Positions 1 to 1,248 of a DNA stretch of 1,257 bases are shown here, in pieces. Position 1 is the first letter of the stretch. Each line of letters opens with the position of its first letter. The notes under the pieces were generated by a model. It saw only the letters and a list, made by a program, of their open reading frames with translations, did not search any database and was not told the origin of the DNA. Source of the DNA: Escherichia coli (GTDB taxonomy: Bacteria; Pseudomonadota; Gammaproteobacteria; Enterobacterales; Enterobacteriaceae); NCBI RefSeq assembly GCF_003334815.1, contig NZ_QOWO01000102.1; one strand, written 5' to 3'. The position numbers were made by a program, and so were the translations under genes.

Positions 1-35
1 CTGTCGGCTTCCAGTGTCAGGGCCAGTTTCATCAT
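1..35 (-). CDS. 5' end only (11 codons, [11 protein letters not shown]...) of a downstream small gene that continues past the window edge; its position matches the YeeW-like gene that follows CbtA-family toxins
   Basis: Minus-strand ATG at 35..33 overlaps the toxin TGA stop at 34..32 (ATGA), and the frame stays open to position 1. The YeeW-like assignment comes from the conserved gene order of this cassette, not from the 11 residues themselves. Confidence 0.4.
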
Positions 36-406
36 TTCGCCTCCGGATACTTACCCAGGGTGATATTGTTCACCGTTCTGTAGTTGTGGCGGGTCATCAG
101 GCCTGTTGCCCGGCGAGCCCGGAGAATATCAATGCTGTTGATTAACTGCGACGAGGCTCCTGCGCTGAATCCCGGCTGGTCAGTTCGTACCAGTGCGTAT
201 TTTTCCACGAGAAAGTTCACTGCATCACACAGTGAAATGCCTGCCTCAATATGCTGCTCAATCACGCGTTCATCCACGAACGGTGTGTCATTCAGCGTAA
301 GGCTGTAATGCTGGCCCAGTAGTCGGGAGAGCAGAGTCTGCCAGATGGTGACGGGAGACGGGCAGCACGATACCTCCCGTACATGCGTGTCGGGTAATGT
401 TTTCAT
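32..406 (-). CDS. cbtA: CbtA/YeeV-family toxin of a type IV toxin-antitoxin system (124 aa), the cytoskeleton-targeting toxin family
   Basis: The 124-aa ORF from the track starts MKTLP and ends [11 protein letters not shown]. Its length and long conserved stretches ([80 protein letters not shown]) match the E. coli YeeV/CbtA family as I recall it. Start is ATG 406..404 with an AGGA about 11 nt upstream; stop is TGA 34..32. Which paralogue it is (yeeV, ykfI or ypjF type) cannot be settled without alignment; the length and C-terminus favour yeeV. Confidence 0.9.
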
Positions 407-495
407 ACTGAAGATTTTCCTGATATGCAGAGATAAAAAATGGGACAGTGGCGTGGTGAAAACACCAGGCCGGAGCAGAAGGTTATTCTGGTGGT

Positions 496-864
496 TTACT
501 TTTTCGTTTCAGGTGTCGGATAAACAGCCAGATAAACGTAACCACAGGAGCCGAGGGTGTCTGCTTCACAGGTCAGCCCCTTCGCATACAGTGTCACGGT
601 ATGCTGATGGCGGGGATTCAGTTCACCACTGGTGAGCATTAATTTCAGTTGTTTCATCAGCAGCGGAAAGGCCTGGTCCAGAGGGTACGCATCCGCATCT
701 CTGAACCGGCCTCTGATACCGGCACGGTCGGCAAGGTAATGCAACCGGTTACCCTCCTGCACCAGACGGGCGCCGAAACAGGGCGTCACTGTGCAGGGTA
801 GTCCCCACCAGGGATGGTCGTCATTGTCATCGGGATGCGTTGTCCCGGAAAGTGTGTCTGACAC
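496..864 (-). CDS. cbeA: CbeA/YeeU-family type IV antitoxin (122 aa from a GTG start); cognate antitoxin of the CbtA-family toxin
   Basis: The track ORF 496..972 contains the sequence VSDTLSGTT...[36 protein letters not shown]...[19 protein letters not shown], which matches YeeU/CbeA as I recall it. The GTG at 864..862 sits 7 nt after GAGGA (876..872) and gives the family-typical 122 aa; the stop is TAA 498..496. The gene lies 89 nt upstream of the toxin on the same strand, the usual antitoxin-then-toxin order. Confidence 0.88.
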
Positions 865-913: not shown

Positions 914-1027
914 TCAGCCGGTGCACAGACCGGCTTCGGTGAAGGTGTATTCGTTGATGAGCAGGACCTCATCCACAGCGGCGTCTGAGCTCAGCCAGTC
1001 GTACTCGTTTTCCGGGTGACGGAACAT
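914..1027 (-). CDS. Hypothetical 37-aa acidic small ORF (MFRHPENEYDWLSSDAAVDEVLLINEYTFTEAGLCTG) between the YeeT-like gene and the antitoxin; not in the supplied track
   Basis: ATG at 1027..1025 overlaps the YeeT-like TGA stop at 1029..1027 (cTGATGttc), and the stop is TGA 916..914. Hand-translated from the sequence. About 28 of 36 third codon positions are G or C and G is enriched at first positions; most codons are E. coli-preferred (CTG, CCG, GAA, AAC, TAC, ACC, GGT, CGT, TTC, ATC). There is no Shine-Dalgarno of its own, so expression would need coupling to the upstream gene. Confidence 0.3.
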   Translation of the reverse strand: MFRHPENEYDWLSSDAAVDEVLLINEYTFTEAGLCTG

Positions 1028-1248
1028 CAGTTCAGGGTGACGCTCATCAGCCGGACATACGGACCAAAACTGTCCTTACGGCGTTCTGCAAACACGGCCA
1101 GCACACCGGGAATATCCTGCACTTCACGACCGGTATACGCTTCAGCACTGCCGTGCCAGCGGTATTTGCCGGTACAGAACGGAAAAAGACGGGATGCCGG
1201 ATGCTGACGGTGAATACGCATGGCTTCGCCACGGGTGATGATTTTCAT
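1027..1248 (-). CDS. yeeT: YeeT-like small protein (DUF987 family, 73 aa) conserved immediately upstream of CbeA/CbtA modules
   Basis: The 73-aa track ORF MKIITRGEAMRIHRQHPASRLFPFCTGKYRWHGSAEAYTGREVQDIPGVLAVFAERRKDSFGPYVRLMSVTLN matches YeeT/YkfH/YpjJ-type proteins as I recall them. It has an ATG at 1248..1246 and a TGA at 1029..1027. Its ribosome-binding site and promoter lie beyond the window edge. Confidence 0.85.
   Translation of the reverse strand: MKIITRGEAMRIHRQHPASRLFPFCTGKYRWHGSAEAYTGREVQDIPGVLAVFAERRKDSFGPYVRLMSVTLN

Follow-up and report, generated by a model that had tools for sequence, protein, structure and literature searches.

What does the non-coding spacer between the antitoxin and the toxin gene of an Escherichia coli CbtA/CbeA-type locus hold, and could it weigh on the balance between the two products? 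The operon is reported to be autoregulated by neither CbeA nor CbtA (PMC5371832), and 89 nt separate the two cistrons in the window, a term used here for the whole 1,257-nucleotide stretch of DNA that was analysed. A first-pass annotation had read in this spacer one short segment with two possible partners, whose mutually exclusive pairings could affect mRNA processing or stability and so the relative expression of toxin and antitoxin. The answer reached here is that the spacer very probably holds one real, conserved hairpin, at 450..471, and no competing fold. The main value of the analysis is that the idea of competing stems is retired and that experiments are directed to this hairpin.

The locus and its spacer

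The window is part of an E. coli island of the CP4-44 type and all its genes are carried by the minus strand. The features that frame the spacer are the following:

1027..1248, minus strand: DUF987/yeeT-like gene
496..864, minus strand: gene of the 122-aa type IV antitoxin, cbeA/YeeU family (as annotated by RefSeq in a locus of 99.6% identity)
407..495, minus strand: antitoxin-toxin spacer, 89 nt; in K-12 this element is the 88-nt cbeA-cbtA intergenic region
32..406, minus strand: gene of the 124-aa toxin, cbtA/YeeV family (as annotated by RefSeq in a locus of 99.6% identity)
496..498 and 404..406, minus strand: antitoxin stop codon and toxin ATG, which bound the spacer
418..421, minus strand: AGGA, the likely toxin Shine-Dalgarno sequence, 11 nt 5' of the ATG, read from sequence

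The names given by RefSeq to the products of the 99.6% identical locus are CbtA family toxin and YeeU family antitoxin. The order yeeT, antitoxin, toxin, yeeW on one strand of a CP4-44-like island is that of a CbtA/CbeA type IV system, of which yeeT-cbeA-cbtA-yeeW of K-12 CP4-44 is the textbook copy. Relative to the latter (locus L003), the antitoxin and the toxin of the window show 89% and 85% amino-acid identity, respectively (tblastn). The cbeA-cbtA gap of K-12 measures 88 nt (PMC5371832), and the 89-nt length that the first-pass annotation had assigned to the spacer (407..495) was found to be correct. Its region 407..431 is identical among the loci retrieved by protein similarity.

The window has matches at 13,765 places in 4,935 of the 5,426 complete E. 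coli genomes, with up to 99.6% identity (megablast), and their annotation shows this very arrangement of genes. A search with the 5' two-thirds of the spacer, a query that does not include the 20-mer anchor described below, located it at 10,191 places, which belong to 4,666 of the same 5,426 genomes. The number of copies per genome (median 2, up to 7) tracks the copy number of the toxin-antitoxin genes. Forty rows were sampled down the ranking of these 10,191 places and all 40 correspond to the end of a YeeU-family antitoxin gene or to unannotated DNA. In view of these rows, the spacer is not a dispersed repeat of the REP/BIME kind.

The downstream junction of the toxin gene has a distinct layout. 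The toxin stop codon TGA (34..32) shares one base with the ATG (32..30) of a yeeW-like DUF5983 gene on the minus strand (TGATG). This overlap suggests translational coupling 3' of the toxin, in contrast to the 89-nt gap found 5' of it. At the other end of the locus, yeeT and the antitoxin gene are separated in many E. coli copies by an additional gene of some 550 bp (positions 2411-3054 of L002), annotated as a hypothetical protein or as an 'antitoxin of toxin-antitoxin stability system', which the window does not have (from about 865 to about 1026). E. coli-type cbeA-cbtA loci, 84-98% identical, were also found on contigs filed as Collinsella, Lachnospiraceae, Arthrobacter and Segatella (L004, L006, L072, L074, L081, L082). 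Their presence under those foreign genus names is most likely due to binning or assembly contamination.

Homologous spacers for the comparisons below come from viral and metagenome contigs. They were recognised by a perfect match to a 20-mer anchor, which belongs to the 3' part of the spacer and lies 19 nt downstream of the hairpin. The resulting set comprises 45 distinct spacers and 71 distinct antitoxin-spacer-toxin loci that are 85-99.9% identical.

Folding of the spacer transcript and the proposed alternative stem

The strings on which the two alternative pairings had been built are all present. TGGTG (454..458), CACCAG (463..468) and CTGGTG (488..493) lie exactly at these coordinates, and the loops that would separate them measure 4 nt (459..462) and 19 nt (469..487), as had been described. 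In the mRNA, which has the minus-strand sequence, they read as a shared segment CUGGUG (468..463), an upstream partner CACCAG (493..488) and a downstream partner CACCA (458..454). When the spacer was shuffled 5000 times with its dinucleotides preserved, 34% of the shuffles contained a perfect 6-bp inverted repeat, five-bp pairs occur at a mean of 2.35 per shuffled spacer, and one segment with partners on both sides is found in 3.4%. Each of the short stems, taken as first described, is at chance level.

The observation was thus correct in its strings and incomplete in its proximal stem. This stem gains the pairs GGC/GCC across a 1x1 C.C mismatch and so extends to an 8-bp hairpin that spans 450..471. 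The caution of the first-pass annotation that such short stems may be due to chance holds for the distal stem; the 8-bp hairpin of which the proximal stem is the core is above chance. The elements of the spacer fold are:

450..471, minus strand (mRNA): hairpin GGC-C-UGGUG-UUUU-CACCA-C-GCC, 8 bp interrupted by a 1x1 C.C internal loop and capped by UUUU
463..468, minus strand: 5' arm of the hairpin core, CACCAG on the plus strand and CUGGUG on the mRNA, invariant in the 71 distinct loci
454..458, minus strand: 3' arm of the hairpin core, TGGTG on the plus strand and CACCA on the mRNA, nearly invariant
476..490, minus strand: small upstream hairpin CAGAA-UAACC-UUCUG, present in the minimum-energy fold and overlapping part of the distal segment
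488..493, minus strand: proposed distal partner, CTGGTG on the plus strand and CACCAG on the mRNA, 3-8 nt past the stop codon, neither conserved nor populated

Six of the eight base pairs of the hairpin are G-C. Its free energy is -12.7 kcal/mol, with pair probabilities above 0.98 in the partition function, and it is the top 26-nt local fold on both strands of the 1257-nt window. The proximal hairpin folds better than the shuffled controls, only 0.4% of 1000 spacer shuffles reaching its energy; for the spacer taken whole, z is -2.3, and its fold is equalled by 5 of 200 shuffles. The hairpin starts 25 nt past the antitoxin stop codon, far enough for it to remain folded during ribosome termination, and lies 44 nt ahead of the toxin start. 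It is followed on its 3' side by a single-stranded U-rich stretch and then by the toxin ribosome-binding site.

The distal stem behaves differently in every comparison with the proximal one. Forcing its formation changes the ensemble free energy from -19.8 to -12.8 kcal/mol, a cost of 7 kcal/mol, and its pair probability is about 0 versus 0.99 for the proximal hairpin (partition function). It appears in none of the 45 minimum-energy folds of the distinct homologous spacers, nor is it part of their RNAalifold consensus. The cells of its alignment are 91.5% paired over the 45 variants, with no double change. The pair A492-U464 is replaced by a U.U mismatch in 20 of the 45, including the commonest variant, the K-12-type CUCCAG, and no compensating change accompanies this loss. 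The distal arm is in fact among the most variable stretches of the spacer (columns 489, 491 and 492, with A/T at 26:45 in column 492). It is also claimed by the local hairpin CAGAA/UUCUG, and a terminating ribosome would presumably cover 488..493. The distal stem is a chance match which neither forms nor persists.

The corresponding region of K-12 CP4-44 (cbeA-cbtA, or yeeU-yeeV) illustrates the point. It has an identical hairpin (GGCCUGGUGUUUUCACCACGCC) at an equal offset, and its gene order and 3' ribosome-binding region are also those of the window. It differs in its upstream segment, which is CUCCAG instead of CACCAG, so that the distal stem is already broken there. The literature searched on cbtA/cbeA mentions the 88-base gap (PMC5371832) and describes no structure in the spacer.

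A switch in which 463..468 alternates between 488..493 and 454..458, and in this way sets mRNA processing and the toxin:antitoxin ratio, is therefore largely refuted by the energetics and by the non-conservation of the distal arm, and its probability is judged to be close to nil. Several observations are in its favour. The three strings do exist, and their two-sided arrangement is rare among the shuffles. The changes in the upstream arm are mostly A-to-G or C-to-U, which keep G.U pairs and leave the high paired fraction mentioned above. In L217, where the proximal hairpin is broken, the minimum-energy fold uses ACCA/UGGU. The upstream arm is transcribed first and could be masked by ribosomes, which makes a kinetic or translation-sensing version conceivable. 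Against them stand the 7 kcal/mol penalty and near-zero probability of the distal fold, its absence from the 45 variant folds and from the consensus, the A492-U464 mismatch, the expectation of a 6-bp inverted repeat in a third of random spacers, and the competing use of the upstream arm by CAGAA/UUCUG. A search of the whole window against Rfam 15 at a permissive E-value returned only chance-level snoRNA matches (E >= 0.88), none of them at the hairpin; a weak plus-strand match to SNORA12 at 484..549 (E = 2.7) touches only the 5' edge of the spacer.

Other pairings in the window are of lesser weight. The upstream hairpin 476..490 is a weak feature: 94% of its cells are paired, no compensatory change is found, and its closing pair is lost in 11 of the 45 variants. 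For the pyrimidine tract at 441-449, 3' of the main hairpin (CUUUUCC, CUGUCCC or CUCUCCUC), the folds predict a weak pairing with the AGGAAAA region of the toxin (417-422). In the window the Shine-Dalgarno region is unpaired with a mean probability of 0.16, and its pairing with the pyrimidine tract, weak and heterogeneous, is predicted in both spacer subfamilies described below. A second intergenic hairpin, AGCCGGU-CUGUGC-ACCGGCU, is found at 911-936 on the minus strand, in the yeeT-cbeA gap (865-1026); it has 7 bp and -12.0 kcal/mol (-12.9 on the plus strand). In the 10 loci that span this gap the 911-936 hairpin is no more conserved than the rest of it (diversity 0.12 versus 0.084).

Conservation of the hairpin within and outside Escherichia

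The mean nucleotide diversity of each column class was compared over the 71 loci:

whole hairpin (450..471): 0.038
stem columns of the hairpin: 0.028
codon positions 1 and 2: 0.047-0.064
codon position 3: 0.149-0.174
codon position 3 in the toxin, close to the spacer (first 60 nt): 0.274
spacer 5' part, 472..495: 0.154

The paired segments of the proximal hairpin are thus conserved among homologous loci. Stem diversity is below that of third codon positions (Mann-Whitney p = 0.002-0.004) and also below that of the 5' part of the same spacer, values which are indicative only because the copies are young and recombining. Note that the anchor used to gather the variants could lower the diversity nearby, while toxin third positions at equal distance from it stay diverse. 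The hairpin segment ranks 79th of 770 for low diversity, which is not extreme. Its 5' arm is almost invariant and the first base of its loop is freely T or C. The change A457T, which creates a U.U mismatch in the middle of the stem, is found in 9 of the 71 distinct loci (12 copies) and belongs to one lineage, in which the mismatch is evidently tolerated.

The proximal hairpin is present in the minimum-energy fold of nearly all 45 variants and its cells are 97.8% paired. One double change, from C-G to U-A with U.G intermediates present, and four single changes of the wobble type were found. Three of the four kinds of single transition in the stem produce a G.U wobble on the mRNA strand and an A.C mismatch on the other strand. 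The RNAalifold consensus holds the hairpin with a covariation term of -0.19 kcal/mol. The covariation over the 45 variants is not significant, 80 of 500 shuffles doing as well; it is too sparse to prove the structure because there is too little divergence.

A more diverged comparison is provided by a second spacer subfamily, type B, which was found through the weakest matches. It is present in about 195 E. coli genomes and has the same 89-nt length with a diverged loop and 3' flank. The copies referred to here are:

L211 505-593: type B spacer
L214 480-568: type B spacer
L215 476-564: type B spacer
L217 481-569: type B spacer
L218 481-569: type B spacer
L216 481-570: hybrid spacer, an A/B recombinant, from O104:H4

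The type B sequence reads ...CCGGCC(U/C)GGUGC-(GCUACA/AUUACA/ACCACA)-GCACCACUCUCC... and folds into a hairpin of 5-6 bp at the equivalent position, with energies of -8.6 to -10.5 kcal/mol. A gapless alignment of types A and B contains one exchange of a U-A for a C-G pair. The best hint of constraint from the comparisons, as read from six sequences, is that a hairpin has survived while the sequence around it changed.

Outside Escherichia the picture changes. A protein-guided scan with one genome per species gave a cross-genus sample of 80 loci, in which the 88-89-nt spacer is restricted to Escherichia-type loci, namely E. coli-like contigs and E. albertii. The spacers of more than 70 loci from other genera measure 20, 24, 34-38, 54 or about 69 nt. 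They are unrelated in sequence and unstructured, their best local fold being no stronger than -3.8 kcal/mol. In K-12 itself, the paralogues ykfI/yafW and ypjF/yfjZ have 20-nt gaps and no hairpin. The hairpin is therefore lineage-specific and dispensable for the family, since related loci work with 20-nt spacers that do not carry it. A reading of the hairpin as an insertion relative to the 30-36-nt spacers of Kosakonia and Enterobacter, with which ACCTTCT and TATCAGGA are shared, was rejected, as the alignment is unconvincing.

These data bear on the alternative that the hairpin has no function: the palindrome would have arisen by chance in a spacer peculiar to this lineage, and its apparent conservation would reflect recent paralogues that recombination has kept alike. 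Copies with this spacer come without exception from Escherichia and are at least 85% identical, the covariation is not significant, a lineage with a broken stem persists, family members devoid of the hairpin are functional toxin-antitoxin pairs, and the low-diversity rank of the hairpin segment is unexceptional. Homogenisation would leave three observations to be accounted for: the stem varies less than do third positions equally far from the anchor, and less than the spacer's own 5' part; its local fold energy is reached by very few shuffles; and in the diverged type B subfamily, with its new loop and flank, a hairpin still forms at the equivalent position. Absence of function is a possible explanation, to be taken seriously, and on balance an unlikely one. 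What is observed is that the hairpin is specific to the 88-90-nt spacer of Escherichia and more conserved there than near-neutral sites.

Rearranged spacers were encountered as well. In L074 and L210 (spacers of 80-93 nt) a 4-nt insertion, CACCA-GCCA-CGCC, creates a perfect 6-bp stem CUGGUG/CACCAG; in L210 it is accompanied by an earlier antitoxin stop codon. In L194 (about 10,400-10,560, minus strand) the 3' end of the antitoxin gene has given way to an insertion-sequence-like element, which stops 2 nt before CACCAG. In L173 an unrelated ABC-transporter-like gene is joined to the spacer directly after the hairpin, a junction that is probably a chimeric assembly.

Candidate roles of the hairpin and comparison with known systems

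A conserved RNA structure located just past the antitoxin stop codon could, as the first-pass annotation had supposed for its pair of stems, affect mRNA processing, mRNA stability and the toxin:antitoxin ratio. The preferred model is that the hairpin acts on the polycistronic mRNA as a determinant of stability or processing. An endonucleolytic cleavage would take place in the single-stranded A/U-rich stretch 3' of the hairpin, and the hairpin would then bar the way to 3'-to-5' exonucleases. The antitoxin-coding segment of the mRNA would consequently be longer-lived than the toxin-coding one, and the antitoxin would be kept in excess. The features expected of a stabilising hairpin are found: the structure is stable, it lies just 3' of the antitoxin cistron, and its diversity is 0.028-0.038 versus 0.15-0.27 at third positions. 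Post-transcriptional control also fits this operon in view of the reported absence of autoregulation (PMC5371832). The model, drawn by analogy with kis-kid, is preferred but unproven. Taken as a whole, with the conserved intercistronic hairpin and the putative mechanism together, the statement is tentative and is held with somewhat less than even confidence.

A role in transcription would place the control one step earlier. The hairpin would be an attenuator or a pause site, and fewer polymerases would reach the toxin gene. A G+C-rich stable stem between two genes, with a run of six U downstream (441..436 region), is compatible with this idea, as is the finding that the stem-loop beside axe-txe is a terminator/attenuator in vitro (PMC3760812). 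The details of the sequence fit it poorly. The 8 nt that follow the stem are ACUGUCCC and include only two U, the U-run begins 11 nt past the stem and the terminator scan did not call the hairpin. An intrinsic (Rho-independent) terminator was rejected on the grounds of the ACUGUCCC tail and of the scan: the G+C-rich stem-loop is there, and the U-rich tract expected 0-2 nt after the stem is not. The spacer hairpin is not an intrinsic terminator. A study that mapped 3' ends in K-12 (PMC7815308) reports none at this place, and its supplements have no entries for cbeA, cbtA, yeeT or yeeW, which may only reflect low expression. An attenuator or pause site is considered improbable.

The conserved arms would also be explained by selection on a protein-binding site in DNA or RNA. 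TGGTG-N4-CACCA could be the site of a dimeric regulator on the DNA, for example at an internal toxin promoter, or a sequence-specific site on the RNA. The arms are indeed conserved as sequence and not through covarying pairs, subfamily B keeps them while the centre changes, and many variants have a third copy of the motif, CACC(A/G)G, upstream. The spacing between the arms is 4 nt in one subfamily and 8 nt in the other, which is hard to reconcile with a single dimeric DNA-binding protein, and the single transitions favour changes compatible with G.U pairs on the mRNA strand. The promoter scan found no sigma-70-like promoter in or near the spacer on the minus strand, and the lack of autoregulation by CbeA or CbtA (PMC5371832) also speaks against a regulatory site. 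Since the promoter and terminator scan is empty for the minus strand of the spacer, both an internal toxin promoter and an intrinsic terminator are unsupported. There is accordingly only a small chance that the arms are a binding site of this kind. A genomic-SELEX peak of PdhR is listed at yeeU>yeeV>yeeW of K-12 (yeeV region, about 2070-2444 of L003) (PMC7660256). It was discarded as an explanation of the hairpin, as no recognisable PdhR box is found and the peak is not at the hairpin.

A more elaborate proposal joins the hairpin, the ribosome-masked CACC(A/G)G and the pyrimidine tract that can pair with the Shine-Dalgarno sequence in a translation-sensing device. If this were true, translation of the antitoxin would decide co-transcriptionally between exposure of the toxin ribosome-binding site and cleavage of the mRNA, and the device would supply the missing control and activation mechanism of type IV CbtA/CbeA systems, which have no autoregulation. 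It is regarded as very unlikely. The conserved hairpin between the two genes, which about 86% of the complete E. coli genomes possess and many of them more than once, is an inexpensive candidate, open to experiment, for the control that keeps the toxin below the antitoxin.

The hairpin is an ordinary kind of element, an intercistronic mRNA stem-loop, which is confined to Escherichia and, in the papers searched, previously undescribed. Two-state RNA switches such as riboswitches and attenuator leaders resemble the spacer in that, on paper, one of its segments has two partners; they differ from it in that the two states of the spacer are 7 kcal/mol apart, only one of them is conserved and there is no Rfam match. 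Intrinsic terminators of the axe-txe type share with it a short G+C-rich mRNA stem-loop that adjoins a toxin-antitoxin gene, the differences being that the spacer hairpin has no immediate U-tract and lies between the genes rather than after the operon. The closest parallel is kis-kid (parD) of plasmid R1, where an antitoxin-only mRNA is said to owe its stability to a stem-loop just beyond the antitoxin coding region, in the passages devoted to it in PMC3920265 and PMC3760812, which cite Ruiz-Echevarria 1995. The genes of kis-kid, a type II system, overlap and are translationally coupled; the stem-loop is located inside the 5' part of kid, and the system is also transcriptionally autoregulated. 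The cbeA-cbtA operon, unlike kis-kid, is a type IV system which is not autoregulated and has an 89-nt non-coding spacer; its hairpin, predicted from sequence, lies in that spacer. Both operons encode the antitoxin first, and a stem-loop that biases expression toward the antitoxin, as these passages attribute to kis-kid, is the working model for cbeA-cbtA.
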